Positions 4,974-24,892 of a DNA stretch of 26,362 bases are shown piece after piece. A model generated the notes under the pieces. The model did not search any database, had not been told where the DNA came from, and saw only the letters and a list, made by a program, of their open reading frames with translations. Each line of letters starts with the position of its first letter. Positions within the stretch are counted from its first letter, which is position 1. The translations under genes were made by a program, and so were the position numbers. Source of the stretch: an uncultured Pseudomonadota bacterium (GTDB lineage Bacteria > UBA10199 > CAZHVX01); assembly GCA_964536295.1 (NCBI GenBank), contig CAZHVX010000005.1, positions 1,613 to 27,974 of the forward strand. Reading direction: 5' to 3'.

Positions 4974-4980
4974 TTGTGTA

Positions 4981-6504: not shown

Positions 6505-6524
6505 GTGTTTACAAAGGAGGGAAA

Positions 6525-8092: not shown

Positions 8093-8101
8093 GAGGGGAA
8101 A

Positions 8102-8383
8102 ATGAATGAAAAGTGTTTTACAGCAAAGGAGGTCGTAGCGACCATCACCAAGTTCTTTGAAGATGACCTGGGCAAGGTAGGGCGTGTGATCGAGGTGACC
8201 AACAAGGGAAATGGTGATGGCTGGAACGCCAGAGTTGAGGCCCTGGAAGAAAGCGCCTATATGCGTTCAATGGGCCGGGGAGACATGCTGGGTGTTTACG
8301 ACGTAACGCTGGATAATAATTTAAATGTTATGACTTATTCACGAAAAAAACTCCGTGAACGGACGTCGTTGGAAGAAGAATAA
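8102..8383 (+). CDS. gvpO: GvpO-like gas vesicle protein, paralog 1.
   Basis: The C-terminal motif ...GDGWNARVEALEESAYMRSMGRGDMLGVYDVTLDNNLNVMTYSRKK matches the GvpO pattern (GW.V.VEV.ER......D..G.Y.V..D....V.GYE). It is paralogous to 14739-15005. Confidence 0.6.
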   Translation: MNEKCFTAKEVVATITKFFEDDLGKVGRVIEVTNKGNGDGWNARVEALEESAYMRSMGRGDMLGVYDVTLDNNLNVMTYSRKKLRERTSLEEE

Positions 8384-8490: not shown

Positions 8491-8546
8491 GAAAGGATAT
8501 AATGGAGGTAGACTAAGGATGGAAAATTATTATAGGAGGAAATAAA

Positions 8547-9110
8547 ATGACCGAAAAGAAAAAAGAAAAAGAAAAGGATGGAGCCGATTTTGACATTGGT
8601 AGTCTTGGAGATTTGGGTGGAACAATTGGCGGTATATTTAAGGGACTAGGTGGTTTGATTGATTTGGCTTCAAAGTTAAAAGAAGCCGGTGGTGAGATGA
8701 ACAAGGCCGGTGAGTTCGATTTAGGTGAGAAGTTTAAAAATCTCAAAGGCGCCTATGGTTTTAACATCCGAACGGCAACTGGTAAAGATGGTACGGAAAA
8801 ACCGATAGTTGAACCCATTGGCAGAAAGGTGAGGGAAACTCCCGAAGGGCCGGTGGTGGAGGAAGAACTAGAACCGATTGTCGATGTATTCGATGAGGTC
8901 GATAAAATACAGGTAGTTGCTGAATTACCGGGCGTTACAGAAGATAAGATTAGTTATGAAATCGAAGGTGATATCCTAACCTTACATGCCGAGGGAAAAA
9001 AGAAATACAGCAAGGAGATATTGCTTTCATCCGCAGTTGATAAGGATGGTGTTACTACTTCGTACAAGAATGGAGTCTATGAATTAAAGATGAAGAAAGT
9101 AAAGCAGTAG
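8547..9110 (+). CDS. Hsp20/alpha-crystallin family small heat-shock protein, with a G-rich N-terminal region.
   Basis: The C-terminal alpha-crystallin-like fold VDVFDEVDKIQVVAELPGVTEDKISYEIEGDILTLHAEG...YELKM carries the 'AELPGV' and I-x-I/V-like motifs. The RBS AGGAGGAAA precedes the start. Confidence 0.75.
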   Translation: MTEKKKEKEKDGADFDIGSLGDLGGTIGGIFKGLGGLIDLASKLKEAGGEMNKAGEFDLGEKFKNLKGAYGFNIRTATGKDGTEKPIVEPIGRKVRETPEGPVVEEELEPIVDVFDEVDKIQVVAELPGVTEDKISYEIEGDILTLHAEGKKKYSKEILLSSAVDKDGVTTSYKNGVYELKMKKVKQ

Positions 9111-9119
9111 GAGAACAAA

Positions 9120-11309
9120 GTGGCAGACAAAAAACCAAAGAAATCGCAAAAAGGCACGACAAAAAAGAATGGCCTTCCGCTCAAGGTGGCCGAGGCCTTG
9201 AGTAAAGACGTCGGTCGCGGTATTGCCAGAATTGATCCTGCTTATATGGAAAACCTGGGCGTTTCTATCGGAGATATCGTTCAAATCGATGGGAAGCGTA
9301 AAACTGTTGCCAAGATTATGCCCACATATATGGATGACCGCGGCAAGAAGCTTATACAAATAGACGGTGTTGTCAGGGAAAATGCCAAATCTGGTCTTGA
9401 TGACAGGGTGTTTGTTGACAAGGCATCACATAATCCGGCCAGTCAAATTGTCCTGACTGCGTTGACTGCGGCTCCGGCACGTGGTGAAGATGCCCGTTAT
9501 ATTGGCAGGCTTTTCGAAGGGCTTCCTTTGGTGTCGGGCGATAGGGTAAGGGCCACACTCTTTGGTACACGCTCGCGTGATTTTAAAGTGGTCAGCACCA
9601 GCCCTGAAGGTGTGGTTTTGGTAACACCCACAACAAACATAAAGATCAAGGGTGAAAAGAAGGCTGCAGAGGAAAGGGGACCTCACGAGGTTTCATATGA
9701 AGACGTTGGAGGCTTGGGTAAGGAAATAAATAAGATTCGCGAGATGATCGAACTTCCATTACGGTATCCGCAGGTCTTTGATCGTCTGGGCATTGATCCT
9801 CCAAAGGGCGTGTTATTACACGGACCTCCAGGAACTGGAAAAACTTTAATTGCAAGGGCGGTTGCCCATGAATCGGAGGCAAACTTTTTTTCCGTTAACG
9901 GTCCTGAGATTGTGCATAAATTTTACGGTGAATCAGAGGCGCATCTTCGATCCATTTTTGAAAAGGCGGCGGAGGCGGCTCCTTCAATAATCTTTATTGA
10001 TGAAATAGATGCCATTGCGCCCAAACGTGCCGAGGTGACTGGCGATGTGGAAAAGCGCATCGTTGCTACACTTCTGGCTATGATGGACGGGCTTAAAGGT
10101 CGGGGTCAAGTCATTGTTATTGGCGCCACAAATATTCCAGATGTTATGGATCCGGCGCTTCGTCGTCCGGGCCGTTTTGATCGAGAGATTGTGATCGGTA
10201 TTCCAGACAAGAATGGCCGTGAACAAATTTTAGATATTCACACGCGAGGTATGCCACTGACCGAAGATGTCGACATTGGACATTTTGCGGCAATTACGCA
10301 TGGCTATGTTGGCGCCGATTTGGAAGCGCTTGCTCGTGAAGCAGCTATGATTTCGCTTCGTAAGGTCTTCGATAAGGTGGATTTTAATCTCGATGAAATA
10401 CCTTATGAAACATTGGTTTCTTTGGAAGTCAACATGGATTGTTTTATTCGGGCGCTCAACGAAGTTACACCCTCGGCCATACGCGAGGTCTTTGTAGAGG
10501 TTCCGGATGTTAAGTGGGAAGATGTTGGCGGTCTTGAAGATACGAAAGAGATCCTTAAAGAAACAGTGGAGTGGCCTTTAAAATATGAAAGACTTTTTGC
10601 TCATGCGAACGCCAAGGCGGCCAAAGGTATTTTGTTGGACGGCCCTCCGGGAACGGGTAAGACCTTGCTAGCAAAGGCCCTGGCCAATGAGAGTGAGGTG
10701 AACTTTATCTCCATTAAAGGACCTGAGCTCATAAGTAAATGGGTCGGCGAAAGTGAAAAGGGCGTTCGTGAAATATTCAAAAAAGCCAGACAGGCTGCTC
10801 CTTGCATTTTGTTCTTTGATGAAATCGACAGCATTGCACCAAGACGCGGTGGAGGCGAAGGAGATTCCGGTGTTACCCAAAGGGTTATAAGCCAATTTTT
10901 GACTGAACTCGACGGCCTTGAAGAGTTAAAGGGCGTGGTGATCCTGGGGGCAACCAACCGAAAAGACATCCTTGATCCAGCATTGATTCGTACCGGCAGG
11001 TTTGATTTATCAATAACACTCCCGATACCCGATTTCAAATCCAGAGAGGCAATATTCGAGGTCCATACAAGGAATAAGCCATTGGAGAAAAAGATCAATT
11101 TTAAGGAGATGGCCAGGGCAACTGAAGGTATGGTTGGGTCCGATATCGAGGAAGTGTGCCGGCAGGCTATCATGTTGGCGTTAAGAGAGTTTATCCACAA
11201 ATATGAGGATGACGCCAACAAGGAATGTGAGAAGTTCAAGGTCAAGGCCTCTCATTTTACAGAGGCATTAAAATACATAAAGAAGCAAAAAAGAGGTACA
11301 AGCCAATGA
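9120..11309 (+). CDS. Cdc48/VCP/VAT-type ATPase with two AAA domains and an N-terminal Cdc48-N domain.
   Basis: N-domain: [37 protein letters not shown]1 has Walker A GPPGTGKT, Walker B IIFIDEID and the SRH motif [14 protein letters not shown]2 has [17 protein letters not shown] and [10 protein letters not shown]. The start is GTG with AGGAG 8 nt upstream. Confidence 0.9.
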
Positions 11310-12346
11310 AATATTTTCATGGTATCATAAGTAAGGGGGAGGAAATAAATTTCGGCTCCATTGGATTTCCACTTGCGGATTTTGAAACAAAATTTGGTAA
11401 TGTATTTACAGTTCCCTATGAAAATATGGGGGCAGTAGTCAGCGACATAGACGATATGGATTTTCAAACCCCGGATAAAGAGATGTTGGTACGAAGACTT
11501 TTGGTTCATCAAAAGGTGTTGGAGCATGTTGTTAAAGAAGGTTGTGGAATTTTGCCTGTGAAATTTGGTACGTGTCTAAATGATGTCGATGAGGCCTTGA
11601 AAGTTATGAAGATTGGTTATTTTAAATTCGAAGATGCAAGCAGAAGAATGGGGAAAAAACACGAGCTGGATTTGGTGGTTACATGGGATACTAATAAGAA
11701 GCTTAAAGAGGTAGCCCTGGAAAGTCAGGAAATACAACACTTTAAGCAGAAGATTGAAAAGATGCCAGAATCTAAATCTGCCGCTGAAAAGATGAAGATA
11801 GGGATGATGCTTCAAAAAGAGCTTCATCACGTCCGGGACGGAATTTCACGTGAGATTTTGTCGACCCTGGTTGATATTACCAAGAGTCGATCGGACCACG
11901 AGCTTATGGATGATAATATGGTAATTAATTCATCTTTTCTTTTGAATGACATGGAGGAAAAGACATTTGATAAAATATTGGCTGGGCTGGATTCCAGGTT
12001 TAACGGCGAATTGAATTTTAAATGTTTAACACCACTACCACCATATAGTTTTGCTACTGTTGAAATCAAAACGATAGAATTTGAAGAAATAGAAAAGGCC
12101 TGGAACTTGTTTGATTTTGGGAAAAAGACAACACTTAATGAAATTAAGGAAGTTAATCGGAAACTAACCAAGGAATGGCATCCTGATAAAAGGCCAGGGG
12201 ATCATGAGGCCCAGATCAAATTTGAAGGCCTGAACACCTCATATAAAACACTTTTGGATTATTGTGAAAGTGGGAAGGCCTCCCTTCCCAAAAAGGGCGA
12301 GAAGTTTTTTAAAGTAAATGTCGTTAAGGCAGAGGAGATGTTATGA
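11306..12346 (+). CDS. gvpF: GvpF/GvpL-family protein fused to a C-terminal J-domain (DnaJ-type, HPD motif).
   Basis: The N-terminus and core (YFHGIIS...AVVSD..., LVHQKVLEHV, LPVKFGT, and C-terminal LNFKCLTPLPPYSF) are collinear with the GvpF paralogs at 12343 and 13201. The C-terminal 75 aa, NEIKEVNRKLTKEWHPDKRPGDHEAQIKFEGLNTSYKTLLDY, carries the J-domain HPD tripeptide. There is a 4-bp overlap with the upstream cdc48-like gene. Confidence 0.8.
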   Translation: MKYFHGIISKGEEINFGSIGFPLADFETKFGNVFTVPYENMGAVVSDIDDMDFQTPDKEMLVRRLLVHQKVLEHVVKEGCGILPVKFGTCLNDVDEALKVMKIGYFKFEDASRRMGKKHELDLVVTWDTNKKLKEVALESQEIQHFKQKIEKMPESKSAAEKMKIGMMLQKELHHVRDGISREILSTLVDITKSRSDHELMDDNMVINSSFLLNDMEEKTFDKILAGLDSRFNGELNFKCLTPLPPYSFATVEIKTIEFEEIEKAWNLFDFGKKTTLNEIKEVNRKLTKEWHPDKRPGDHEAQIKFEGLNTSYKTLLDYCESGKASLPKKGEKFFKVNVVKAEEML

Positions 12347-13092
12347 CTACAGAAGGCAAGTATATATATTGCATCATCGGAACCAGTGATCCAAGGCACT
12401 TTGGTCCCATCGGCATCGGTGAACGGAACGATGAGGTGACTACAATTGGTGCCAGGGATATCTCTGCCATTGTCAGCAATACTCCGATGGAAAAGTATGT
12501 TGTCAGTAGAGAAAATCTAACTGCCCATGAAAAGATAATTGAAAAGGTGATGTCAGAATATACGGTGTTACCCGTCCGCTTTTGTACCGTTGCTACCAGT
12601 ACGCAGGAGGTGATGGATTGCTTGAAGAGGCGTTATCCCGAGTTCAAAAACCTGCTAAGAGATATGGATAACAAGGTAGAAGTTGGTTTGAAGGTAGTTT
12701 GGAATGACATGCAAACGGTGTTCGATGAACTTGTAGCTGAAAATGATGATATAAGACAGATGAAAGAAGCTGGCAAAATAAAGAAACGTAATGATTTAAT
12801 AAATGCTGGTAAAATTGTCGAAGCCATCTTGGAAGAGAAAAGAAGTATGGAGGAGGGAAGATTATTTCGTGACTTAAAGAAGGTTGCATCAGATTTTAAG
12901 AGTGCCAAGCGACATGGTGATAATATGTTGACCAATGCTGCGTTTCTGCTCGATAAGGGACGGCAGCGAGCATTTGATAATCAAGTAGAAACTTTGGTGG
13001 AGGAGAATAAGGATCGATTTACGGTTAATTATGTCGGTCCGGCACCTCCGTTTAATTTTGTAAACATTGAGATAAAATTTGCAGGGGAATAA
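12343..13092 (+). CDS. gvpF: Gas vesicle protein GvpF/L family.
   Basis: The N-terminus KYIYCIIG... and the C-terminal VGPAPPFNFV are typical GvpF features. There is a 4-bp overlap with the upstream gene. Confidence 0.85.
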   Translation: MTTEGKYIYCIIGTSDPRHFGPIGIGERNDEVTTIGARDISAIVSNTPMEKYVVSRENLTAHEKIIEKVMSEYTVLPVRFCTVATSTQEVMDCLKRRYPEFKNLLRDMDNKVEVGLKVVWNDMQTVFDELVAENDDIRQMKEAGKIKKRNDLINAGKIVEAILEEKRSMEEGRLFRDLKKVASDFKSAKRHGDNMLTNAAFLLDKGRQRAFDNQVETLVEENKDRFTVNYVGPAPPFNFVNIEIKFAGE

Positions 13093-13200
13093 AAAGTGTA
13101 TAGGTGTATAAGTGTATGAGTTTTTAAGTTAGGAAATGAAAAATTTAGACATTTTAACTTATATACTTATACACTCAAAAACTTATACACTAGTAAAGAT
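13093..13200 (+). promoter_or_regulatory. Intergenic module 1. Forward 8-bp tandem units (GTGTATAG GTGTATAA GTGTATGA GTTTTTAA) are followed by a central AT-rich segment and then the same units in reverse orientation (CTTATATA CTTATACA CTCAAAAA CTTATACAC).
   Basis: The direct and inverted octamer arrays are seen directly. The module lies immediately upstream of the gvpF at 13201. Confidence 0.55.
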
Positions 13201-13959
13201 ATGACAGAGCTTGGACAATACATATATTGCATAATAGGGGCCGACGAACCGAAACAGTTCGAATCGATTGGAATAGACGATTCTCATCCAGAGATATATA
13301 CTGTTAATTATGAAGGCTTGGCTGCCGTGGTGAGCGATTCGCCGGTGAAGACATATCAACTCTCACGCGCCAATATGATGGCCCATCAAAAGGTCTGTGA
13401 AGAGGCAATGAAAGGACATACAGTCTTGCCGGTCAAGTTTTGTACGATTGCCGAGAAGAAAGGAATGATAGAAGAAAAGGTCTTAAAGAGACGCTATAAA
13501 GAATTTCAAAAAATGATGATAGATATGAATGGTAAAACTGAACATGGCCTTAAGATGCTTTGGATGGATATAGACAAGGTGTTTGCACAGATCGTGGAGG
13601 AAAACGAGGATATCAAGGGACTGCGTGATTCTTTAAAATGGAAGCCGCATACGAAAATTCACTACGATATGATTCATGTGGGTGAAATGGTTGAAGCGGC
13701 CCTGAAGGAAAAGAAGAAGAATTTCGTAAAGGAAATAGTTAAACCTCTTAAGTTGCTTGCTGAGGATTGCCGTGAAAATGATACTCATGGAGACAAAATG
13801 ATCATAAATGCATCTTTTCTAGTGAGTGAAGAGAATCAATCCGAATTTGATAATCGAATTGGTGAATTAGAAGCTTCTTATAAAGAGGATATAAAAATAA
13901 AATACGTAGGTCCCATTCCACCATTCAATTTTGTAGAAATTGTGGTGCATTGGGACTGA
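13201..13959 (+). CDS. gvpF: Gas vesicle protein GvpF/L family.
   Basis: QYIYCIIG..., AAVVSD, LPVKF.T and C-terminal VGPIPPFNFV are present. It is paralogous to 12343-13092. Confidence 0.85.
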   Translation: MTELGQYIYCIIGADEPKQFESIGIDDSHPEIYTVNYEGLAAVVSDSPVKTYQLSRANMMAHQKVCEEAMKGHTVLPVKFCTIAEKKGMIEEKVLKRRYKEFQKMMIDMNGKTEHGLKMLWMDIDKVFAQIVEENEDIKGLRDSLKWKPHTKIHYDMIHVGEMVEAALKEKKKNFVKEIVKPLKLLAEDCRENDTHGDKMIINASFLVSEENQSEFDNRIGELEASYKEDIKIKYVGPIPPFNFVEIVVHWD

Positions 13960-14061
13960 TGGGAGTGTATGAGTATATGAGTGCATAAGTACATAAGCAT
14001 ATAAGTTGAAGTGATTGAAATTTCTATAATCTAATTTAGAAACTTATACACTGAGGTTAAT
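13960..14061 (+). promoter_or_regulatory. Intergenic module 2. An octamer array (GTGTATGA GTATATGA GTGCATAA GTACATAA GCATATAA) is followed by the conserved core AGTTGAAGTGATTGAAATTTCTATAATCTAATTTAGAAACTTATACAC, which contains a perfect TATAAT at 14025-14030. Candidate gvpG promoter or operator.
   Basis: The ~48-bp core is ~90% identical to 17126-17173. TATAAT is present. The -35 is ambiguous: TTGAAG sits 13 bp upstream. Confidence 0.55.
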
Positions 14062-14427
14062 ATGGGTTTAATATTAAACATACTGGGGGCACCGATAGCG
14101 GGGCCAATTAGGTTCTTACAGTGGACGGCCGAAAAGGTAAATGAAACCGTTCATAAAGAAAGGACTGACAAATCTAAGATCCAGGCGGAACTTCTATCGC
14201 TCCAGATGCGCATGGAAATGGATGATATTACCGAAGAAGAATTTACAAAGAGAGAAGATGAACTTCTGGCGCGATTAGATGAAATTAATAAAATCGAAAC
14301 AGGTGAACCAATAGAAAAGAAAACAAAAAAGAAAAGGGGGGCTTATGCCAAAGAAAAGAAAGCTGGGCAGGTCGATCAGCAAAAAGAAGAAAACGACAAA
14401 GAAAGTGACGAAGAAGAAGACGTTTAA
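14062..14427 (+). CDS. gvpG: Gas vesicle protein GvpG, with an acidic/basic low-complexity C-terminal extension.
   Basis: The N-terminus MGLILNILGAPIAGPIRFLQWTAEKV..., followed by EEEF..RE.EL...L, is the conserved GvpG pattern. The last ~35 aa come from purine-rich low-complexity DNA that is also read in another frame by the 14345 ORF. Confidence 0.75.
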   Translation: MGLILNILGAPIAGPIRFLQWTAEKVNETVHKERTDKSKIQAELLSLQMRMEMDDITEEEFTKREDELLARLDEINKIETGEPIEKKTKKKRGAYAKEKKAGQVDQQKEENDKESDEEEDV

Positions 14428-14716
14428 GAAAGCAGCAAAGAAAAAGACAGCGAAGAAGGCGACAAAGAAGACAACAAAGAAGACGACAAAGAAGACAACG
14501 GCAAAGAAAAAGACAGCTAAGAAGGCGACAAAGAAGACAACCAAGAAGAAAGCGGCAAAGAAAAAAACAGCTAAGAGAAAAGACAAAGCCACTTTACTAA
14601 AAGTAGAAAAGAGGCAGGTCCTTTCAGAAATTCAGGCATTACGTGAAAAGTTAAGAAAAGCACGTGCTAAGAATATTAAGCAAAGACAAACAGATTTTAC
14701 TAAATACACACGCTGA
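14345..14716 (+). CDS. Lysine-rich, histone-H1-like basic protein with K-K-T/A-T/A-K-K repeats. Candidate DNA- or surface-binding protein. It overlaps the 3' end of gvpG in the +1 frame.
   Basis: An independent RBS-like run AAAAGGGGGG sits 5 nt before ATG 14345. The protein MPKKRKLG...KKTTKKVTKKKTFKKAAKKKTAKKATKKTTKKTTKK... has a non-repetitive C-terminal 40 aa (LLKVEKRQVLSEIQALREKLRKARAKN), which suggests real coding. Low-complexity DNA gives open frames easily, so caution is needed. Confidence 0.45.
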   Translation: MPKKRKLGRSISKKKKTTKKVTKKKTFKKAAKKKTAKKATKKTTKKTTKKTTAKKKTAKKATKKTTKKKAAKKKTAKRKDKATLLKVEKRQVLSEIQALREKLRKARAKNIKQRQTDFTKYTR

Positions 14717-14738
14717 AACGCAAAGGGAGGTGAGCCTT

Positions 14739-15005
14739 ATGGCCGATTTATCAAAAGCAAAAGAAAAGATAGGTCAGTTTTTCACTGACGAACTCAAGAA
14801 GGATAAGGATGCTCTCAAGTTCCTAGAGGTTACTAAAACAGATGCCGGTTGGTGTGGAAGGGTAGAAGTGGCCGAGAGAAACATCTATCTTAAGAAAATG
14901 GGTTTTCCCAATGTGCTCGACAAAAATACGTACAACGTTCAGTTAGATCCCAGTCTTAACGTTATTGGGTACAAGCAGGAAGGCAACGAAAAAGAAGAAG
15001 AATAA
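14739..15005 (+). CDS. gvpO: GvpO-like gas vesicle protein, paralog 2.
   Basis: The RBS AAGGGAGGTG precedes ATG 14739. The motif DAGWCGRVEVAERNIYLKKMGFPNVLDKNTYNVQLDPSLNVIGYKQ parallels 8102-8383 and the GvpO pattern. The ORF-track start at 14664 lacks an RBS. Confidence 0.6.
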   Translation: MADLSKAKEKIGQFFTDELKKDKDALKFLEVTKTDAGWCGRVEVAERNIYLKKMGFPNVLDKNTYNVQLDPSLNVIGYKQEGNEKEEE

Positions 15006-15112
15006 AACGTAGAATCGCGGTGCCCCCCGATGTGTAGGGTGCGCCATGCGCCCTTTGACAAGGAAGCAAATAAAGGCAGCTTCTTTGTTAAAGCGCCCAT
15101 GAAAGGTGATTT

Positions 15113-17089: not shown

Positions 17090-17214
17090 TGCAAAAGTGT
17101 TTAAGTGTATAAGTGTATGAGTATATAAGTGTAGAAGTTGAAGTAATTGAAATTTCTATAATCTAACTTAAAAACTCATACACTTAAACACTTATGGACT
17201 TAAGGGAGGTATTT
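17090..17214 (+). promoter_or_regulatory. Intergenic module 3. An octamer array (GTGTTTAA GTGTATAA GTGTATGA GTATATAA GTGTAGAA) is followed by the conserved core AGTTGAAGTAATTGAAATTTCTATAATCTAACTTAAAAACTCATACAC, with TATAAT at 17156-17161, and then reverse octamers. Candidate gvpJ-K-L promoter or operator.
   Basis: The core is near-identical to module 2. It sits immediately upstream of gvpJ. Confidence 0.55.
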
Positions 17215-17571
17215 ATGACATTAGAAGCCAGGCGAGAAGGGTCAGATAGCCTTGCCGATGCAATCGATCGTATATTGGATAAGGGATTAATTATTAATGC
17301 CGATATTCAGGTATCTTTGGCAGGCGTGGAGCTCTTAGGAATAAAGATACGTGCGGCGCTGGCGTCCTTTGAGACGGCGGCCAAGTATGGCCTGGAATTT
17401 CCGTCAGGTACATCTATCGAAGGACCTGCTTGGGAAGAAGCAAAGATACCAAAGGAAGCATGCCCGCAGTGTGAAAAGCGCGTGCCAACTGAGCATCTTA
17501 TGAATGGAGGTTGTCCGTGGTGTGGTTGGATTAGCGCAAAGGCACTTAAAGCAACACCTGAGGCTAAGTGA
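17215..17571 (+). CDS. gvpJ: Gas vesicle protein GvpJ (GvpA-family core with a C-terminal Cys-rich extension).
   Basis: The segment [49 protein letters not shown] is the GvpA/J/M-family core. The RBS AAGGGAGGT precedes ATG 17215. The C-terminal CPQC...CPWC forms a putative Zn-ribbon. Confidence 0.85.
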   Translation: MTLEARREGSDSLADAIDRILDKGLIINADIQVSLAGVELLGIKIRAALASFETAAKYGLEFPSGTSIEGPAWEEAKIPKEACPQCEKRVPTEHLMNGGCPWCGWISAKALKATPEAK

Positions 17572-17885
17572 TGCCAATAAATATAGATGAAAAAAATCTA
17601 AAGCATGGTCTCTTAGGTTTGGTGCTAGCCTTGGTGGAAATCATAAGAGATACGTTAAAGATCCAGGCTACAAAAAGAATGGATGGAAAAAGTCTTACCG
17701 AGGAAGAGATCGAACGGTTAGGGCGGGCCTTGATGGAGTTGGATGTGGCCATCGAACAAATGAAGGAAGACCAAGGCGTTTCTGAGGCAGTAGCTTCCGT
17801 CCGTGACGGACTGGACGACATTGTTAATGATGCAATTCATACAATTATTAATCCAGTTGAAGGGAGGCAAATTGATAAATCCTAA
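17568..17885 (+). CDS. gvpK: Gas vesicle protein GvpK.
   Basis: The motif LKHGLLGLVLALVEIIRDTLKIQATKRMDGKSLTEEEIERLGRAL is the conserved GvpK pattern. There is a 4-bp overlap with gvpJ. Confidence 0.85.
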   Translation: MMPINIDEKNLKHGLLGLVLALVEIIRDTLKIQATKRMDGKSLTEEEIERLGRALMELDVAIEQMKEDQGVSEAVASVRDGLDDIVNDAIHTIINPVEGRQIDKS

Positions 17886-18651
17886 AGTTGCAAAATATCT
17901 CTATTGTATTGTCGACGCGAGTGAAGAGGTTAATTTGGGCAACGTTGGTATTGAAAGAGGTGAGGTTTATACAATTGTTTACAAAGATATCGCAGCAATA
18001 GCGCACGATTGTCATCCTGAGCCTTATCAATCGGATGATAAGCAGGTGGTAGAGAGCTGGGTCAAATCTCATCAAGCGGTCATTGATCTATGCTGGGAGC
18101 GATTTGGTACAATACTGCCTTTTGGATTCGATACCATAATCCAGGGGAGTGAAGAAAGAAATCCTCTTGAAAACACAAAAAAATGGATTAGCGATGATCA
18201 TGATAAGTTAAAGGGACAAATTGAGAAGCTTCGTGGAAAGGCGGAATATGGGATTCAGATTTCCTGGGATCCAAAAATTATCATAAATGAATTTTGCAAA
18301 ACCAACAAAGAGATTAAAGCCTTGGAAAAAGAGATATCTACAAAATTAGAAGGTGCGGCATATATGTATAGGCAAAAGCTGGAGGGGTTGTTTCGCAGCG
18401 AATTGGAGAAAAAGGCAAATGAGTTTTTTAAAGAAGCATTCGATAATTTTAAGGTCTATCTGAAAGATGTCAAAGTAGAAAAGGTCAAGAAAATGGATGA
18501 CGGTAGGCAGATGCTGATGAACCTTTCGTGTCTTTTAGAAAAGGGTGAAACTAAAGATCTTGGGGACGAATTGGAGAAAATTGATAAGCGGGAAGGCTTC
18601 TTTGTGAAATTTACCGGCCCATGGCCACCTTATTCTTTCGTAAGTGCATAA
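17872..18651 (+). CDS. gvpL: Gas vesicle protein GvpL/GvpF family.
   Basis: The N-terminus AKYLYCIVD... and the C-terminal FTGPWPPYSFV are GvpF/L hallmarks. The start is taken as TTG 17872, preceded by GAAGGGAGG 5 nt upstream. The ATG at 17803 is an alternative in-frame start that would overlap gvpK by 83 nt. Confidence 0.75.
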   Translation: MINPKVAKYLYCIVDASEEVNLGNVGIERGEVYTIVYKDIAAIAHDCHPEPYQSDDKQVVESWVKSHQAVIDLCWERFGTILPFGFDTIIQGSEERNPLENTKKWISDDHDKLKGQIEKLRGKAEYGIQISWDPKIIINEFCKTNKEIKALEKEISTKLEGAAYMYRQKLEGLFRSELEKKANEFFKEAFDNFKVYLKDVKVEKVKKMDDGRQMLMNLSCLLEKGETKDLGDELEKIDKREGFFVKFTGPWPPYSFVSA

Positions 18652-18682
18652 GTGTATGAGTGTATGAGTTGGAGAGTTGAAT
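18640..18682 (+). promoter_or_regulatory. Intergenic module 4 (short): GTGCATAA GTGTATGA GTGTATGA GTTGGAGA octamer units upstream of the four-helix-bundle gene.
   Basis: The GTGTATRA unit family is the same as in modules 1 to 3. Confidence 0.45.
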
Positions 18683-19048
18683 ATGAAAATAGAGAGATTT
18701 GAAGAATTAGATTGCTGGAAGGCAGCACGGGAACTAGTGACAATAGTTTACAAACTTACACGAGAGAAAATGTTTAGTAGGGATTTTGGATTGAGGGATC
18801 AAATTCAAAAAGCTGCTATTTCAACAATGGCAAATATCGCCGAGGGGTTTGCTGCCAATTCGGATAGGGAATTCATTAGATTCCTAGGATATGCAAGTCG
18901 TTCTGCTATTGAAGTTCAATCACATTTATATGCTACCCTCGATTTAGAATATATAGAGCATGATCAATTTGATAAGGCCTTCAATAAGGCTCAAGATTGT
19001 ACAAATTTATGTAGAGGTTTAATTCGATATTTAAAAACAAAAACTTAA
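18683..19048 (+). CDS. Four-helix-bundle protein of the '23S rRNA intervening-sequence / S23 ribosomal protein' family.
   Basis: The protein MKIERFEELDCWKAARELVTIVYKLTREK...RDQIQKAAISTMANIAEGFAANSDREFIRFLGYASRSAIEVQSHLY is the characteristic pattern of this small, widely scattered family (..W..A..L...IY.LT..FP..E...L..QL.RAA.SI..NIAEG....S..E...FL..A.GS..E....L). The assignment is motif-based. Confidence 0.6.
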   Translation: MKIERFEELDCWKAARELVTIVYKLTREKMFSRDFGLRDQIQKAAISTMANIAEGFAANSDREFIRFLGYASRSAIEVQSHLYATLDLEYIEHDQFDKAFNKAQDCTNLCRGLIRYLKTKT

Positions 19049-19096
19049 AAACAAAAACTTATGGACTTATAAACTTATACACTCATACACTTATTT
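19049..19096 (+). promoter_or_regulatory. Intergenic module 5: reverse-orientation octamers (ACTTATGG ACTTATAA ACTTATAC ACTCATAC ACTTATTT) directly abutting the gvpM start.
   Basis: These are the reverse complement of the GTGTATRA family. There is no RBS between the module and ATG 19097. Confidence 0.45.
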
Positions 19097-19369
19097 ATGG
19101 AACCAACAAGAAACGGTAGAGCGACATTAGTAGACCTTCTTGACAGGGTGTTGGACAAGGGGTTGGTTATCAACGCCGATATCATCATCTCCTTGGCCGG
19201 TGTGCCCTTAATTGGCGTGAACTTGCGGGCAGCGCTGGCGGGCATGGAGACTATGGTTAAATATGGAATGATGCGCGATTATGATCTCAAGTCACGCAAG
19301 TGGGAGAGCGAAAAACGTCGCGAAGAAGAAAAAAAGAAAATAACACCACAGCCATTGGTGCAAAAGTAA
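19097..19369 (+). CDS. gvpM: Gas vesicle protein GvpM/GvpJ-type (GvpA family).
   Basis: The segment TLVDLLDRVLDKGLVINADIIISLAGVPLIGVNLRAALAGMETMVKYGMM is the GvpA-family core. The C-terminal tail is basic and acidic. Confidence 0.8.
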   Translation: MEPTRNGRATLVDLLDRVLDKGLVINADIIISLAGVPLIGVNLRAALAGMETMVKYGMMRDYDLKSRKWESEKRREEEKKKITPQPLVQK

Positions 19370-19380
19370 CAGGGGGATTT

Positions 19381-19560
19381 ATGACATTTGATCCATTCAA
19401 AATAGTAAAAGAGATTCAAAAAGGTTTGAGAGGTTTGTCCAAAAAAGCCGGAAAATCTGGAAATCCGAAATTCAAAGAAATTGAAAAGCGCCTCAAAGAA
19501 ATCGATGAAAAGTTGGAAGAGAAGTTTAGTGACAAACAAGGTGATGAAGAAAACAAGTAG
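19381..19560 (+). CDS. Small hypothetical K/E-rich protein of 59 aa.
   Basis: The RBS ACAGGGGGA precedes ATG 19381 (MTFDPFKIVKEIQKGL...). The ORF-track start at 19300 lies inside gvpM, so it is less likely. Confidence 0.35.
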   Translation: MTFDPFKIVKEIQKGLRGLSKKAGKSGNPKFKEIEKRLKEIDEKLEEKFSDKQGDEENK

Positions 19561-19568
19561 GGGGCTCG

Positions 19569-19952
19569 ATGGCGAGGATTCCTTCAAAAAGTGGGCTGGA
19601 TACATTAAAGGTGCGCAGGGAGCCAAGGCTCGTTAATAACGAACCGGTCCTTTTGTGGCAACAAGGTTCTTACGATTGCGGCAGCTCCTTATCGTCAAGC
19701 TGGAAGCTGGGATTTATATGCTTAACAAAGAATAACATATACTTCCTCCAGGGAAAGCGATGTGTCCTGGAGATAGACTCTCAGCAGATAAGAGAAATTA
19801 CTATTCTAAAAAGAAGTTGGGTCTTGGGGAAGGTGATTGATCAATTGTTTATTAGGATCGTAGACGCAATACAAAGGACAAAGAAATATTACTTTGGTGT
19901 CGATAAACCTGAAAGGTGGAAAGAGGCAATCGAGGGGGTAATAGATGGCTAA
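19569..19952 (+). CDS. Bacterial PH/GRAM-like domain protein, translationally coupled to the DnaK-like gene by an 8-bp overlap.
   Basis: The segment PVLLWQQGSYDCG...WKLGFICLTKNNIYFL resembles the N-terminal PH/GRAM-like module of 21678-22550 (EKVILKSKGGLNDG..WRMGEICLTNERLLFL). It is shared by two proteins flanking dnaK. Confidence 0.5.
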   Translation: MARIPSKSGLDTLKVRREPRLVNNEPVLLWQQGSYDCGSSLSSSWKLGFICLTKNNIYFLQGKRCVLEIDSQQIREITILKRSWVLGKVIDQLFIRIVDAIQRTKKYYFGVDKPERWKEAIEGVIDG

Positions 19953-21681
19953 AGTCATAGGTATAGACCTAGGGACAACGTATTCAGTAATGGCTTACTT
20001 GGATAACGGTAAGGCGAAGATCATCCCTAACGCCGAAAAAGAGCACCTAACTCCTTCTGTGGTGGGCTTTGATGCCTTGGAACACGCCTTTGTTGGGGAT
20101 CTTGCCAGGCGCCAATCTGCCATTCATCCCGATCGAACGGTTGCATCCATCAAACGAAAGATGGGAACTAACCATCGTGTAAAAATAGGATCGAAAGAAT
20201 ATTCGCCTCAAGAAATCTCGGCGTTTATACTCAAAAAACTAAAAAGGGATGCAGAAAAATATCTTGGCGACGAAGTCAAGCAAGCTGTGATTACAGTTCC
20301 AGCATATTTTAACGATTCACAACGTCAAGCTACCAAAGATGCAGGAAAGATTGCAGGGCTAGAAGTGCTGCGTATAATCAACGAACCAACGGCAGCATCA
20401 TTGGCTTATGGTCTTGGCCACGGCGGAACACAAACCGTTTTGGTGTGGGACTTAGGAGGTGGAACATTTGATGTTTCCATACTGGAAATTGGCGAAGGGG
20501 TGTTCGAAGTTAAATCAACTTGTGGAAATACACAGTTGGGTGGTGACGATTGGACGGAACGGATTGCCGATTTTGCCATAAAAGAATTTGAATCGAAACA
20601 TGGCGCCTTTCCCAAAGATAACCTGATTGCAATGCAAAGGGTAATAAATGCTGCGGAAGAGGTCAAAATAAAAATTTCTCATGCAAGGGAAGTGAATATA
20701 AACGTACCGTTCATATCTAACAATGGAGATAAACCAGAGCATTTGGATTGTAATCTTTCCAGAGAAGTTTATGAAGACTTTACCGCTGATCTTTTGGAGA
20801 AGCTGATTGGTCCTACCAGGCGAGCTTTAGAAGATGCCGGGCTTACGCCGGAAAAAATAAACCACGCGGTTTTGGTTGGCGGCTCTACCAGGATGCCTGC
20901 GGTTCAAGCTAAAGTCGCTGAACTGATGAGCAAACAGCCTTTTAAAGGTGTAAACCCAGATGAGGTGGTTGCCATTGGTGCGGCAATTCAGGCCGGGGTC
21001 TTAACCGGAGAGGTGACCGATGTAGTCTTGGTGGACGTTGTTCCACTTTCATTAGGGATTGAGACACTCGGCGGTATATTTGCCAAAATAATGAGTCGCA
21101 ATACCACCGTTCCTACTTCCAAGAGCCAGATATTTACAACTTCGGCAGACAATCAAATCGAAGTCGATATCCACATCCTTCAAGGTGAACGTGAGCTGGT
21201 TGCAAATAATACTTCATTAGGCAATTTTAAACTGGTGGACGTTTCACCTGAAGCTCGGGGCGTTCCTAAAATTGAAGTGACCTTTGATGTTGATGCCGAT
21301 GGTATTCTAAGCGTTTCTGCAAAAGATCTATATACAGAGAATGAACAACGAATTCAAATTAGCTCACCAACGGCATTATCTTCTGAAGAAGTGGAACAAA
21401 TGGTTACGGAAGCCAAGTCACATGCCGAAGATGATCGCAAAAAACGAGAGGAAATAGAACTTACTATCAAGGCAGACAATGTTGTTTATGCCGCATTGGA
21501 AACAATGGAAGAAAAAGGCGATTTGTTTGACAAGGTTGAATTGAAACAGGCAAATACGTTGGTGAATAAAATAAAAGCAGCCTTGAAAGAAAACAACTGC
21601 GAACCTTTACCAAGTTTGATGGAAGAGTTAAGGGTGTTGATGGAAACCGTGTGCAACAAAAAAACTAAGGAAAAGGTATGA
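19945..21681 (+). CDS. dnaK: Hsp70/DnaK-family chaperone, a short paralog of 578 aa.
   Basis: The Hsp70 signature motifs IGIDLGTTYS, DLGGGTFDVS and VVLVDVVPLSLGIETLGG (substrate-binding domain) are present. It lacks roughly 50 to 60 C-terminal residues, including the lid end, compared with canonical DnaK. Confidence 0.9.
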   Translation: MAKVIGIDLGTTYSVMAYLDNGKAKIIPNAEKEHLTPSVVGFDALEHAFVGDLARRQSAIHPDRTVASIKRKMGTNHRVKIGSKEYSPQEISAFILKKLKRDAEKYLGDEVKQAVITVPAYFNDSQRQATKDAGKIAGLEVLRIINEPTAASLAYGLGHGGTQTVLVWDLGGGTFDVSILEIGEGVFEVKSTCGNTQLGGDDWTERIADFAIKEFESKHGAFPKDNLIAMQRVINAAEEVKIKISHAREVNINVPFISNNGDKPEHLDCNLSREVYEDFTADLLEKLIGPTRRALEDAGLTPEKINHAVLVGGSTRMPAVQAKVAELMSKQPFKGVNPDEVVAIGAAIQAGVLTGEVTDVVLVDVVPLSLGIETLGGIFAKIMSRNTTVPTSKSQIFTTSADNQIEVDIHILQGERELVANNTSLGNFKLVDVSPEARGVPKIEVTFDVDADGILSVSAKDLYTENEQRIQISSPTALSSEEVEQMVTEAKSHAEDDRKKREEIELTIKADNVVYAALETMEEKGDLFDKVELKQANTLVNKIKAALKENNCEPLPSLMEELRVLMETVCNKKTKEKV

Positions 21682-22550
21682 AAAAAGTAGCATTAAATCC
21701 CAATGAAAAAGTAATCCTCAAAAGCAAAGGCGGCCTAAACGATGGTAGTCAGTCACGTTGGCGAATGGGAGAAATTTGTCTTACAAACGAGAGGCTTTTA
21801 TTTCTCCAACCCTTTGGAATTACTTGTGAAATAGCATTATCCTCGATGGACGAAGTGGGTGTGGAGAAAAAGGACTATGCCTTCGGTCAGAAAAATGCGT
21901 TGTTCTTGAAATATAAGCACAATAATGAGGGCAATGATAAGCATGGCACAATTTGGGTAGTTACGCCAGAGCTGGATAGGTGGAAGGAAAAGCTTTGTGG
22001 TTGGATGCTGATTCAAGTGACTGAAGAAGATTTGGGCAAGGTCTGTGAAAAATTAGATCCGGACTCGGAACGAATTGTTTGGCACTTTTGGGAGGTATCG
22101 CACGCTCGCATCGATGAGCTGGCAACTCTCATTGGTGCTTCGGCGCATATGGATGTGCTCATAAAGATAAGGAACGAGATCAACAAGGTTGCCAGTGAAA
22201 TATTAGGATATCCGTTATTGACATTTGATGTATCCAAAAAAGATCCGGAAACCGAAAAGGATGTTACCTATAGTTGGTGGCTGATAGGCCGTGGCGGTAG
22301 GACAATATCCAAAGAGACTTTTTGCGATGTGTTTGACGAGGGAAAACAATTGGTGGTGGTGGTTGAATTGCTTGGCGTTGATGATAAAGACCTCGATCTT
22401 CAAATAGATCAAAAACGTATTCGGATCAACAATTCAAGTAATGGGAATTGTGAAAAGGAGGTATTCTTGCCCGTCGAAATTGTAGTCGATAAGATCCAGC
22501 AACGTTTTAATAATGGGATTTTGGAAATCAGGGCAACAAAAAGGGGCTGA
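21678..22550 (+). CDS. Two-domain protein: an N-terminal bacterial PH/GRAM-like domain and a C-terminal Hsp20/alpha-crystallin-like domain.
   Basis: The N-terminus parallels 19569-19952. The C-terminal segment QLVVVVELLGVDDKDLDLQIDQKRIRINN...VFLPVEIVVDKIQQRFNNGILEIRATK resembles an alpha-crystallin beta-sandwich. There is a 4-bp overlap with dnaK. Confidence 0.55.
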   Translation: MKKVALNPNEKVILKSKGGLNDGSQSRWRMGEICLTNERLLFLQPFGITCEIALSSMDEVGVEKKDYAFGQKNALFLKYKHNNEGNDKHGTIWVVTPELDRWKEKLCGWMLIQVTEEDLGKVCEKLDPDSERIVWHFWEVSHARIDELATLIGASAHMDVLIKIRNEINKVASEILGYPLLTFDVSKKDPETEKDVTYSWWLIGRGGRTISKETFCDVFDEGKQLVVVVELLGVDDKDLDLQIDQKRIRINNSSNGNCEKEVFLPVEIVVDKIQQRFNNGILEIRATKRG

Positions 22551-22657
22551 AATGGTAGAAAAATCTAGCGAGATTAAATGTTCAATATTTCAAAAGGAAG
22601 AGTGGGTTGCAAAACAACTAACTTCCTACATTATATTGATGTAAAATAAACGAACTT

Positions 22658-23380
22658 ATGAAAGATTATTACGAAATATTGGAGGTGCATCCACGAGCTA
22701 GCCAGGAGGTTATCAAAAAGGCCTATCTGGTTTTGTCCAAGCGTTATCACCCGGATGCCCATGACAGTGAAAGGGCTGGCTGGGCCGAGGAAAAGTTCAA
22801 GGTGATAAATGAGGCCTTTCAGACATTGGGTGATTTAGTTAAGCGCAAGGGGTATGATTTGGATCGAGAGGGTAGCGATGATTATGAATACTGCGAGGAA
22901 GAAGAAGTTGAAATCGATGAGAAGGCATATTTTCACTATCGCTTAGGGTTAGATCATTTTGAAAAAACGGATAAAAGAAGATTCATGTCGGTATTGCTGG
23001 GTAGTTGGCAACGAAACTTGAAGTTGGCTCAAAAATATTTTTTAAAGGTTGTTCGTACATTCCCTACTAGTTATTATACTGACCAATCTCAGTATCATTA
23101 TATAGTATGCTTGATGCGTGAGTATGATTACTCAGAAAAACATGCACAATTGGTAGAAAAAGAGACAGAAATGTTTTTAAAATGTTATCCGGAAAGTGAA
23201 TGTAGAGACATTTTTTACTATCAACTAGGTCAGTTTTATTTGTTAAAGCGACAAGACTATAATAAAGCCATTGAAAACTTGAAGCTATTTTTGGCAGCCT
23301 GTCCTGAATCCTCTAATGCAAAGGATGCAAGATGTTTGCTAAAGTATACTATCAGTCGTCAGTCATCAGCTGACAGCTGA
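22658..23380 (+). CDS. J-domain protein (N-terminal DnaJ J-domain with HPD motif) with a C-terminal helical, TPR-like region.
   Basis: The segment DYYEILEVHPRASQEVIKKAYLVLSKRYHPDAH...KFKVINEAFQTLGD is a canonical J-domain. The remainder is helical with Y/L/K-rich repeats resembling TPR. Confidence 0.75.
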   Translation: MKDYYEILEVHPRASQEVIKKAYLVLSKRYHPDAHDSERAGWAEEKFKVINEAFQTLGDLVKRKGYDLDREGSDDYEYCEEEEVEIDEKAYFHYRLGLDHFEKTDKRRFMSVLLGSWQRNLKLAQKYFLKVVRTFPTSYYTDQSQYHYIVCLMREYDYSEKHAQLVEKETEMFLKCYPESECRDIFYYQLGQFYLLKRQDYNKAIENLKLFLAACPESSNAKDARCLLKYTISRQSSADS

Positions 23381-23732: not shown

Positions 23733-23813
23733 TAAAGATGTTGACTGTTACAAAAACTCACCGTAAAAAGATAATTTCAATTTGAAAGAAAATAATTCAA
23801 AGAGGTGTTTTTA

Positions 23814-24200
23814 ATGAAAACGGTATTTATTGTAGATGATAATAGTGAAATTAGAAAGCTTTTCACCAAAGTATTAAAAAAAGAAGGCGTAACGCGTATA
23901 CTTACTGCCTCCAATGGCGAAGGTGCCGTTAAAATAGTGAAAAAGAGGCGAAAAGGGAGCATTGACCTGGTGTTGTTGGACCTGCGGCTTCCAGATATGA
24001 ATGGAATTGAGGTTTTAAAACAGATAAAGTTGATTGATAAAAAGATTAAAGTGATCATAGTGAGTGGAACCTTGAGCGCTGCCCTTGTTGTACAAGTCGG
24101 AAAACTTGGAGCATTTGACATCTTCGGCAAACCCTTTGATTTATTTGAACTGCAGGATGCCATCAAAAAAGCGCTGGCGGCTAATCCGCGTAAACAGTGA
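23814..24200 (+). CDS. Stand-alone response-regulator receiver domain (CheY-like).
   Basis: The segment VFIVDDNSEIRKLF...DLVLLDLRLPDMNGIEVL...IIVSG...KLGAFDIFGKPFD contains the conserved DD, phospho-acceptor D (LLDLRLPD), and S/K residues. The RBS AAAGAGGTG precedes ATG 23814. Confidence 0.8.
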   Translation: MKTVFIVDDNSEIRKLFTKVLKKEGVTRILTASNGEGAVKIVKKRRKGSIDLVLLDLRLPDMNGIEVLKQIKLIDKKIKVIIVSGTLSAALVVQVGKLGAFDIFGKPFDLFELQDAIKKALAANPRKQ

Positions 24201-24778: not shown

Positions 24779-24789
24779 TTCTTTTGAAT

Positions 24790-24892
24790 CGCGGATCTAA
24801 CGCCGATCTGCTACACGGATCAAACGCTGATCTATTTATTATAAAAGGATCTGTGTTAGATCTGTGTAGTAGATCTGCGTTAGATCGGCGGC
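24790..24892 (+). repeat. GATC-rich imperfect palindromic element, copy 3 of 3, ending just before the aminotransferase start.
   Basis: The element cgcGGATCTAACGCcGATCTgctacacgGATCAAACGCtGATCTatttattataaaagGATCTgtGTTAGATCtgtgtagtaGATCtGCGTTAGATCggcggc has a left arm nearly identical to copy 1. Confidence 0.8.

Follow-up and report, generated by a model that had tools for sequence, protein, structure and literature searches.

A widespread type of gas-vesicle gene cluster that bears a probable client-specific chaperone system of its own

Why would a gas-vesicle (gvp) gene cluster contain an Hsp70, J-domain proteins, a small heat-shock protein, a Cdc48-type unfoldase and an ArsA/Get3-like ATPase? 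We asked this question of a 26,362-nt stretch of DNA from an uncultured Pseudomonadota bacterium (contig CAZHVX010000005.1, hereafter the window). From position 1 to about 23380 the window is a single large co-directional gvp cluster, and this cluster is of a widespread gvp type bearing a chaperone system of its own that is probably client-specific. The account that we favour, and that we consider moderately probable, is that a GvpF-type assembly factor fused to a J-domain (GvpF-J) hands aggregation-prone GvpA-family proteins to Hsp70, with Hsp20, Cdc48 and the Get3-like ATPase serving to hold these proteins, to extract them or to recycle them.

The + strand holds every sizeable gene (all gene coordinates given below refer to it), and the GC skew is positive across the entire window. 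A first-pass annotation, made from the letters alone, had placed the cluster at 8547-23380. We found that it already starts upstream, with a truncated gvpA (1-70) and a gvpA at 324-545; the upstream half adds two GvpN, one GvpO and three CXXCXGXG zinc-finger proteins, and the overall length is about twice that first assigned. The description of the genes as co-directional and overlapping was borne out, with the + strand used throughout and 4-nt overlaps at 11306/11309, 12343/12346, 17568/17571 and 21678/21681. The Hsp70, AAA (Cdc48), J-domain, Hsp20, ArsA and Gvp domains that had been proposed were all backed by Pfam, NCBIfam and PDB profile searches. The core gas-vesicle set consists of gvpA together with Pfam matches above cut-off for GvpL_GvpF (four), GvpG, GvpK, Gas_vesicle (two), GvpO (8102-8383) and the GvpN-like AAA_5 (two). 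A promoter scan of the cluster gave no enrichment above shuffled sequence and a terminator scan gave no convincing terminator internal to it; the two scans neither prove nor disprove that the cluster is a single operon.

Chaperone and gas-vesicle functions are physically joined in GvpF-J (11306-12346), a GvpF/L assembly factor (Pfam GvpL_GvpF 2e-41) with a C-terminal J-domain (DnaJ 4e-9) that carries the motif WHPDK. The window thus contains, as predicted, two J-domain proteins of which one is fused to GvpF, the other being a J-domain and TPR protein (J-TPR; DnaJ 9e-21) that is described below. A word-indexed homologue search yielded four relatives of GvpF-J and none of PH-ACD (a cluster protein introduced below), hence we turned to pattern scans of genome and metagenome contigs. 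The scan for GvpF-J covered one genome per GTDB species and used an alignment of six GvpF-J fusions as the query. It returned 259 relatives in the species representatives. Locus counts given below (n = 80) refer to the best 80 of these 259, in all of which the J-domain was covered, and the gene content of the related loci was read by tblastn with all window proteins. The HPD tripeptide is invariant, being present in 6/6 aligned fusions and in 81/81 GvpF-J open reading frames (ORFs) of related loci.

The neighbors of the fusion gene recur as well. Of the 72 loci with sequence upstream of gvpF-J, 51 have Cdc48 as the direct upstream neighbor and 8 others have DnaK in that place. Where the full 10-kb flanks were available (26 of the 80, giving 20-kb loci), Cdc48 was present in 23, DnaK in 14, ArsA in 18 and Hsp20 in 23; all 26 had Cdc48 or DnaK, and 11 had both. 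In the actinomycetote Candidatus Hakubella thermalkaliphila the order is Cdc48, GvpF+DnaJ fusion, GvpF, GvpG, GvpO, two-domain ArsA, GvpJ, Hsp20, GvpK, GvpF, GvpM, Hsp70 and a 303-aa homologue of the 290-aa PH-ACD. The 80 loci come from metagenome-assembled genomes (MAGs) or single-amplified genomes (SAGs) with more than 20 phylum-level labels, among them Actinomycetota, Bacillota, Aerophobetes, Anaerolineae, Dehalococcoidia, Ignavibacteria, Zixibacteria, Verrucomicrobiota, Latescibacteria, Desulfobacterota/Syntrophales, Nitrospirota, Nitrospinae, Omnitrophota, Planctomycetota, Elusimicrobia, Acidobacteria, Saganbacteria and others. Loci L023 and L044 are labelled Candidatus Methanoperedens and Patescibacteria and may be binning errors or true horizontal transfers.

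It could be argued that these are general stress genes that hitch-hiked on a horizontally mobile gvp island and have no specific tie to gas vesicles. The identity of the cluster to loci of many phyla is flat, at about 57-60%, which, like the mismatch between DnaK indel type and host described below, is consistent with horizontal spread, and the cluster does contain REP-like elements and an inserted IVS-protein gene. Passengers of this kind would not be expected to show a J-domain physically fused to GvpF with its HPD kept in 81/81, or a gene order kept across more than 20 phylum-level labels, and three further observations presented below point the same way: the gvp-linked DnaKs form a separate clade, the PH-ACD family occurs almost exclusively beside gvp genes, and a GvpM-PH fusion exists. 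The first-pass annotation had named in advance a lack of synteny with gvp genes in related genomes as the mark of a coincidence; the synteny is strongly conserved across unrelated lineages. The cross-phylum fusion and synteny therefore exclude chance juxtaposition. They also largely refute hitch-hiking already, and we consider it very improbable.

We then return to the handling of GvpA-family proteins by GvpF-J and its partners. Upstream of gvpF-J lie the genes for a small heat-shock protein of the Hsp20/GvpH-like kind (8547-9110; Pfam HSP20 4e-5, 24.1 bits against a cut-off of 20.8; GvpH weak, 0.0015) and for a Cdc48/VAT-type double-ring AAA+ unfoldase (9120-11309). Homologues of this Hsp20 occur in 44/80 loci, usually immediately 5' of Cdc48, and it opens an Hsp20-Cdc48-GvpF-J module. 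The unfoldase matches Pfam CDC48_N, CDC48_2 and two AAA domains and scores 952 bits with TIGR01243 (cut-off 803); its best match among solved structures is Thermoplasma VAT (5g4f, 2e-219). It has two Walker A motifs (GPPGTGKT twice), two Walker B motifs (DEID twice) and the pore loops KFYGESE and KWVGESE. Two Walker A motifs are likewise found in 48/49 complete related Cdc48s, with aromatic pore loops in D1 and D2. A HbYX proteasome-docking tail is not present in the window Cdc48, whose C-terminus reads ...KRGTSQ, and a Tyr-X-like tail was seen in just 1/49 of the related proteins. In a sub-variant a single-domain (half-size) ArsA/Get3-like gene stands between hsp20 and cdc48, giving the module Hsp20, Get3-like, Cdc48, GvpF-J (loci L018, L056, L061-L063, L070, L071, L073, L078, L080, L083 and L084).

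An extraction motor could also work in the opposite direction. Cdc48 and Hsp20, possibly with DnaK, might pull GvpA from collapsed or unwanted vesicles, by which buoyancy would be lowered and the protein investment recovered. Collapsed gas vesicles cannot be re-inflated, Cdc48 and VAT work as motors that extract and unfold proteins, and the window protein resembles VAT in its aromatic pore loops; in addition, GvpN, present here in two copies, is already the growth-linked ATPase in model systems (PMC11445434), and a second kind of motor may serve otherwise. However, the tightest linkage of Cdc48 is to GvpF-J, which belongs to an assembly-factor family, the cluster encodes no protease, and its Cdc48 is without the proteasome-docking tail. 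The sequence data do not separate assembly from disassembly, and we regard recycling as rather unlikely to be the role of the system.

The Hsp70 of the cluster is a DnaK paralog (19945-21681, 578 aa). It matches Pfam HSP70 at 6e-207 and NCBIfam NF001413 at 778 bits (cut-off 648), with residues 1-575 aligned to profile positions 1-596 of 625, and scores 760 with TIGR02350, below the cut-off of 822; judged by these profiles, the protein is a divergent DnaK. Its nearest non-self matches are merely 59-61% identical, and the two short ones with context checked lie in gvp clusters. DnaKs of the window type are 536-586 aa long, sit at the 3' end of the cluster, usually with the PH-ACD gene next, and are without the ~24-residue insert of E. 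coli DnaK. Their hosts are the window, eight Desulfobacterota/Syntrophales loci, Aerophobetes and Actinomycetota. In a neighbour-joining (NJ) tree they were monophyletic, in 100/100 bootstraps, and apart from canonical DnaKs. Absence of the insert is a recognised marker of monoderm and archaeal DnaK; here the indel type disagrees with the host phylum, the insert being missing even in Desulfobacterota. We rejected the possibility that this is a housekeeping copy, since these DnaKs form a clade of their own, are short, keep a conserved position and are without the insert even where the host is diderm. The separate clade and the missing insert therefore indicate a paralog that travels with the cluster, not a local duplicate of the host chaperone.

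A second gvp-linked Hsp70 type, of 603-637 aa and bearing the insert, lies directly upstream of gvpF-J in Anaerolineales. Because two Hsp70 types adjoin the same J-fused GvpF, the data argue that the link between Hsp70 and GvpF-J is functional. In the Anaerolineales variant (loci L010, L012, L017, L025, L030, L031, L038 and L039) this insert-bearing DnaK of the other clade takes the place of Cdc48 upstream of gvpF-J, and up to four zinc-finger genes follow. The same DnaK type lies about 1.9 kb upstream in L020, and in L030 and L031 a Cdc48 is found several kb further upstream.

Two PH-like proteins flank DnaK. The first (19569-19952, 127 aa, GRAM/GLUE-like) has a stop codon that overlaps the dnaK start; the second is PH-ACD (21678-22550, 290 aa), whose start overlaps the dnaK stop. 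PH-ACD begins with a PH-like domain, continues with a helical middle domain that is strongly conserved and ends in an alpha-crystallin domain (NCBIfam 4e-15, which is a match at the domain level and does not reach the equivalog cut-off; PDB profile 4rzk, 3e-17). The 127-aa protein is homologous to the N-terminus of PH-ACD (E 2e-10) and, at E 8e-5, also to the PH-like segment of a GvpM-PH fusion from an actinobacterial locus. The window PH-like proteins themselves gave sub-threshold profile matches alone (bPH_3 0.004, Vps36 0.006), and the 127-aa protein and the PH-ACD N-terminus would seem to resemble PH domains weakly; the actinobacterial fusion scores above the Pfam cut-offs (GRAM 27.7 against 23.6 bits, Vps36 29.2 against 24.1 bits). 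Such fusions of a GvpM-like Gas_vesicle domain with a PH-like domain occur in Actinomycetota (L001:2942-4051 and L003:9240-9980), directly upstream of gvp-linked DnaK. The fusion physically ties the PH-like domain to a GvpA-family nucleation protein. The L001 genes form a mini-module of ArsA, GvpM-PH, DnaK and PH-ACD between EF-Tu/L33 and SecE/NusG; the contig, of 12 kb, carries no further gvp gene.

PH-ACD defines a small family: a search of 1.84 billion clusters gave 38 representatives at E<=1e-30. Its members directly follow DnaK in 8/17 genome loci and 18/51 metagenome loci. All of the metagenome PH-ACD loci of at least 11 kb that were shown in full (25/25) are dominated by gvp or companion genes, including two without a canonical gvp gene, and most have gvpJ, K, F and M upstream. 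In a second PH-ACD variant there is no adjacent DnaK, and a receiver-domain gene stands upstream in the longer loci.

A stand-alone receiver-domain (CheY-like) gene recurs in 19/80 genome loci and 20/80 metagenome loci, often directly upstream of DnaK or PH-ACD; the window has one at 23805-24200, just downstream of the cluster, and a similar gene lies at L057:16790-17098. This recurrence would suit a regulatory role, in which the AAA+ and Hsp70 parts unfold or sequester a transcription factor or a limiting Gvp protein and thereby set vesicle number, much as haloarchaeal GvpD, described as an NTP-binding repressor (PMC9501494), acts on GvpE. We detected no GvpE-like activator or DNA-binding domain in the window, a weak AbrB/MazE-like ORF aside, and a J-domain on a structural assembly factor together with zinc-finger, small heat-shock and Get3-like holdases points to the handling of a bulk client. 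Regulation as the main purpose of these genes is therefore improbable in our estimation.

The cluster also encodes further putative holdases. A fused two-domain ArsA/Get3-like P-loop ATPase is encoded at 15113-17089 (Pfam ArsA_ATPase 8e-150, in two stretches). Its PDB matches are the fused Chlamydomonas ARSA1 (5zme, 2e-78, the best), Get3 (2e-50) and E. coli ArsA (1f48, 1e-32), and no ars genes were found in Pfam scans of the window ORFs. Among ArsA homologues the metalloid-binding cysteines are kept in the ars-associated Cluster 1 alone, and the other clusters, including the gvp-linked ones, are without them (PMC2963123). Three small DnaJ-type zinc-finger proteins carry six CXXCXGXG motifs each (2440-2754, Pfam DnaJ_CXXCXGXG 2.8e-10; 2751-3215, 3.5e-12; 6525-6923, 2.3e-11). 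Homologues of the third were found in 27/80 related loci and at least one zinc-finger gene in 45/80. The J-TPR protein (22658-23380) combines the DnaJ match given above with YfiO/TPR and has the motif YHPDA, with HPD at residues 31-33. The type I DnaJ layout is not seen here: the J-domains are joined to GvpF or to TPR, and the CXXCXGXG fingers are separate small proteins.

Taken step by step, the favoured account would run as follows. The clients would be the shell proteins GvpA, GvpJ and GvpM, expected to be extremely hydrophobic and aggregation-prone. GvpF binds monomeric GvpA in model systems and has been proposed as a GvpA chaperone (PMC9501494, PMC11445434), and GvpA made ahead of the assembly factors aggregates and is proteotoxic (PMC12848028). 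The GvpF part of GvpF-J would bind the GvpA-family client and so make the fusion a client-specific J-protein, and the J-domain, with its intact HPD, would recruit Hsp70 and trigger its ATPase, using the cluster DnaK where present and the housekeeping DnaK elsewhere. Hsp70 would keep the client soluble and pass it on for insertion into the growing shell. Hsp20 as a holdase and the VAT-like Cdc48 as an unfoldase may extract mis-assembled or aggregated shell protein, or the protein of collapsed vesicles. Hydrophobic segments could be shielded by two kinds of extra holdase, the fused Get3-like ATPase and the zinc-finger proteins of DnaJ type, and the PH-like proteins that flank DnaK might anchor the Hsp70 module on GvpM or at the vesicle. 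The sequences themselves show the domains, the fusion with its invariant HPD, the neighborhood kept across phyla and the distinct clade of gvp-linked DnaKs, and to that extent the genomes support the interpretation of the first-pass annotation. We infer a dedicated gas-vesicle role from gene fusion, synteny and co-evolution, and we likewise infer the pairing of clients with chaperones, the order of hand-off and which of assembly, repair and turnover is served.

Several points weigh against this account. Among the F-like paralogs, it is GvpF-J that has diverged furthest from crystallised GvpF (1.5e-12, against 7e-27 for paralog 3), and given this divergence GvpA binding by GvpF-J would be an extrapolation. 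DnaK was not found in 12/26 full-length loci; the gene may be located there outside the 10-kb flank, or the housekeeping DnaK may take its place. No match to GrpE was obtained among the window ORFs scanned. The "full Hsp70 machine" of the first-pass annotation was therefore overstated, as no GrpE is encoded, though an Hsp70 and two J-domain proteins are present. J-TPR was rejected as a conserved core gene, tblastn in related loci giving J-domain-level matches alone, and we regard it as an addition specific to the lineage. As canonical DnaKs, the NJ tree included just the nearest database matches (Bacillota and Actinomycetota). Finally, the 80 loci were taken as those matching the query best and not as a random sample of gvp loci, such that the frequencies hold for this cluster type only, and all organisms found here to carry the type are uncultured (MAGs or SAGs), with gas-vesicle production predicted from the genes.

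It could be speculated that the parts form a client-dedicated targeting relay, in which GvpF-J and zinc-finger holdases pass shell proteins to a private Hsp70, partnered by the PH-ACD and TPR proteins, and from there to the Get3-like ATPase, with Cdc48 and Hsp20 as an extraction and proofreading motor. We offer this more elaborate form as a possible but tentative one. If true, such a relay would bring amphipathic shell proteins to an interface of gas and water rather than to a lipid membrane. It would be the bacterial equivalent of the Hsp70/Sgt2/Get3 and Cdc48 pathways of eukaryotes, and would provide the first defined physiological client of a bacterial Cdc48.

The truncated gvpA copy at the window edge (1-70) is its 3' end and is 96% identical to 475-544; the complete gene (324-545) has a typical GvpA translation and 75-87% tblastn identity to the gvpA of related loci, and gvpA is thus present in at least two tandem copies. 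It is followed by a coiled-coil protein with no Pfam match and no assigned function (603-1274), homologues of which come after gvpA in 25/80 loci, and by a 330-aa protein of 132-nt (44-aa) repeats (FHTEHAKMAKEL...STEEAQR.KET; 1377-2369). The repeat protein has no Pfam family and homologues in 6/80 loci; it is a candidate GvpC-like outer-surface protein, or functional analogue of one. The two GvpN-type AAA+ ATPases are at 3759-4766 (Pfam AAA_5 1.2e-18; homologues of 52-75% identity in 48/80 loci) and 5110-6063 (4.2e-20). Between them, a 56-aa ORF (4803-4973) has a weak AbrB/MazE (SpoVT-AbrB) likeness (Pfam MazE_antitoxin E 0.002, below cut-off) and is a possible small regulator. GvpO (8102-8383) matches its Pfam family at 2.2e-6 (28 bits, cut-off 25).

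Downstream of gvpF-J the cluster continues with GvpF/L paralog 2 (12343-13092; Pfam 3e-59; PDB GvpF 6l5d 1e-20), paralog 3, the nearest to crystallised cyanobacterial GvpF (13201-13959; Pfam 3e-62; 6l5d 7e-27), and GvpG (14062-14427; Pfam GvpG 4e-20). A lysine-rich ORF (14345-14716; KKTTKKxTKK; 12-, 27- and 66-nt tandem repeats) lies partly over the 3' end of gvpG, out of frame with it; it has no family match and is predicted only. The gene at 14739-15005 had been called a gvpO paralog. Its Pfam match is sub-threshold (GvpO E 0.0035), while homologues stand at the same position in 14/80 related loci, and we list it as a divergent second GvpO-like protein. Next come a GvpJ-like GvpA-family protein (17194-17571; Pfam Gas_vesicle 1.8e-16), with a zinc-ribbon-like C-terminal tail (CPQC...x14...CPWC) unusual among GvpA-family proteins, GvpK (17568-17885; Pfam GvpK 6.5e-19) and GvpF/L paralog 4 (17803-18651; Pfam 2e-61; weak PDB GvpF match, 6e-4), which is probably GvpL-like with a true start later than 17803. 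A GvpM-like GvpA-family protein (19097-19369; Pfam Gas_vesicle 8.5e-18) precedes the PH-like gene. The window proteins are singletons at 90% identity. Minus-strand ORFs were rejected as genes, being without family matches and antisense to conserved genes.

Several kinds of repeat lie between and around these genes. The gaps 13090-13203 and 17085-17205 (also 13960-14072) contain arrays of an 8-nt unit, AAGTGTAT, followed by its inverse, ATACACTT. Two of the arrays form long hairpins on folding, at -35 and -39 kcal/mol (z = -6.7 and -6.6); an Rfam scan found no known RNA family in the window and none for the hairpins, which may be processing, stability or regulatory elements. A gene for a 23S-rRNA-IVS protein (18677-19048) is an unrelated insertion within the cluster. 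It is bounded by inverted copies of the 8-nt-repeat element (18648-18670 and 19072-19094, 96% complementary), and looks as if it had been inserted into the loop of such a hairpin. Because IVS homologues occur at varying positions in 7/80 related gvp loci, the data suggest a small mobile insertion. A perfect 25-nt direct repeat, AAGGATGGAAAATTATTATAGGAGG, at 8072-8096 and 8515-8539 forms the ribosome-binding regions of gvpO (8102) and hsp20 (8547), and a similar repeat pair stands before gvpJ (17201-17225) and a small ORF at 19381 (19367-19391). REP-like GATC-rich elements made of GGATCTAACGC units, direct and inverted, occupy the intergenic positions 4974-5063, 6410-6514 and 24781-24892. The last is crossed by an aminotransferase gene whose TTG start was called at 24784, probably too far upstream.

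How much of this was known? Two-domain ArsA homologues and hsp20 have been reported inside gvp operons of Bacteroidetes/Chlorobi, cyanobacteria, a delta-proteobacterium and Acidobacteria, and the ATPase was proposed to energise a biogenesis step (Castillo & Saier 2010, PMC2963123). The Hakubella genome paper remarked on hsp20 alone near gvp genes (PMC7325909). A full-text literature search, which did not cover subscription-only papers, found no paper that links Hsp70/DnaK, J-domain proteins or Cdc48 to gvp clusters. The proposal of the first-pass annotation that such a set would be a new layer of gas-vesicle biogenesis thus fails for the published ArsA and Hsp20 links and, subscription-only literature aside, may stand for Hsp70, J-domain and Cdc48. 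The layer formed by Hsp70, J-domain, Cdc48, PH-ACD and zinc-finger proteins appears to be undescribed, the ArsA and Hsp20 part having been known since 2010. The related claim that classical clusters are without an Hsp70 machine or Cdc48 agrees with a 2022 review, in which the table of model clusters (Halobacterium, Anabaena, Bacillus megaterium and Serratia) shows gvp and gvr genes only (PMC9501494).

The findings bear on how GvpA is kept soluble, delivered and inserted, a question of the field for which GvpF and GvpN have so far been the hypothesised chaperones (PMC11445434, PMC9501494). The GvpF/J-domain fusion suggests that GvpF-type factors are client adaptors able to feed Hsp70, and the Hsp20-Cdc48-GvpF-J module offers a candidate physiological substrate for a bacterial Cdc48/VAT homologue. 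The use of gas vesicles as acoustic reporter genes is limited by the success of native clusters in E. coli, where 5/15 formed vesicles (PMC10344784), and by GvpA proteotoxicity (PMC12848028); client-matched chaperones of the cluster are obvious parts to try. From an evolutionary perspective, an organelle gene cluster appears to take an entire chaperone network along with it across more than 20 phyla, and an Hsp70 lineage distinct from others is part of that network.

Compared to the classical clusters, those of Halobacterium (gvpACNO/DEFGHIJKLM), Anabaena flos-aquae (gvpA-C-N-J-K-F-G-V-W), Bacillus megaterium (gvpAPQBRNFGLSKJTU) and Serratia (gvpA1-gvpY / gvrA-gvrC), the window cluster shares GvpA, N, O, F/L paralogs, G, J, K and M, tandem gvpA and an Hsp20-like GvpH-type gene. 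In contrast to the classical table (PMC9501494), it alone has Hsp70, J-domain, Cdc48, a Get3-like ATPase, DnaJ-type zinc fingers and PH-ACD, and a J-domain on GvpF itself. The clusters of Castillo & Saier 2010 (PMC2963123) likewise hold a two-domain ArsA and Hsp20 inside gvp operons; DnaK, J-domains, Cdc48, zinc fingers and PH-ACD are unmentioned there, and the window ArsA is nearer to Get3/ARSA1 than to E. coli ArsA.

Similarities to other chaperone systems are of several kinds. HscA/HscB, of Fe-S biogenesis, are likewise a specialised Hsp70 and J-protein encoded in one operon with the pathway that they assist, apparently for one client class, but the analogy is functional only: the window DnaK scores 778 bits with the DnaK model against 582 with HscA, and its J-domain is joined to a Gvp factor and not to an HscB-type domain. 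Plant BSD2 (Rubisco) and Bacillus anti-TRAP are small and almost wholly CXXCXGXG, like the window zinc-finger proteins, which match Pfam DnaJ_CXXCXGXG and Anti-TRAP; unlike them, the window proteins carry six motifs each and lie in a gvp operon, with a putative chaperone function. With archaeal VAT/Cdc48 (5g4f) the window Cdc48 shares the N-D1-D2 architecture, Walker motifs that are intact in each of the two rings and aromatic D1/D2 pore loops, whereas it is bacterial, is without HbYX and sits in an organelle-biogenesis operon beside a J-protein. In the eukaryotic GET/TRC route, tail-anchored proteins pass from Hsp70 to the TPR co-chaperone Sgt2 and then to Get3. The window has a comparable Hsp70, J-TPR as the TPR co-chaperone and a Get3-like ATPase, and its putative clients likewise expose a hydrophobic segment; we offer this likeness as a lead and not as a test. 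On the other hand, there is no Get1/2 membrane receptor, the clients are not tail-anchored, J-TPR is not conserved, and the destination would be the protein shell between gas and water.

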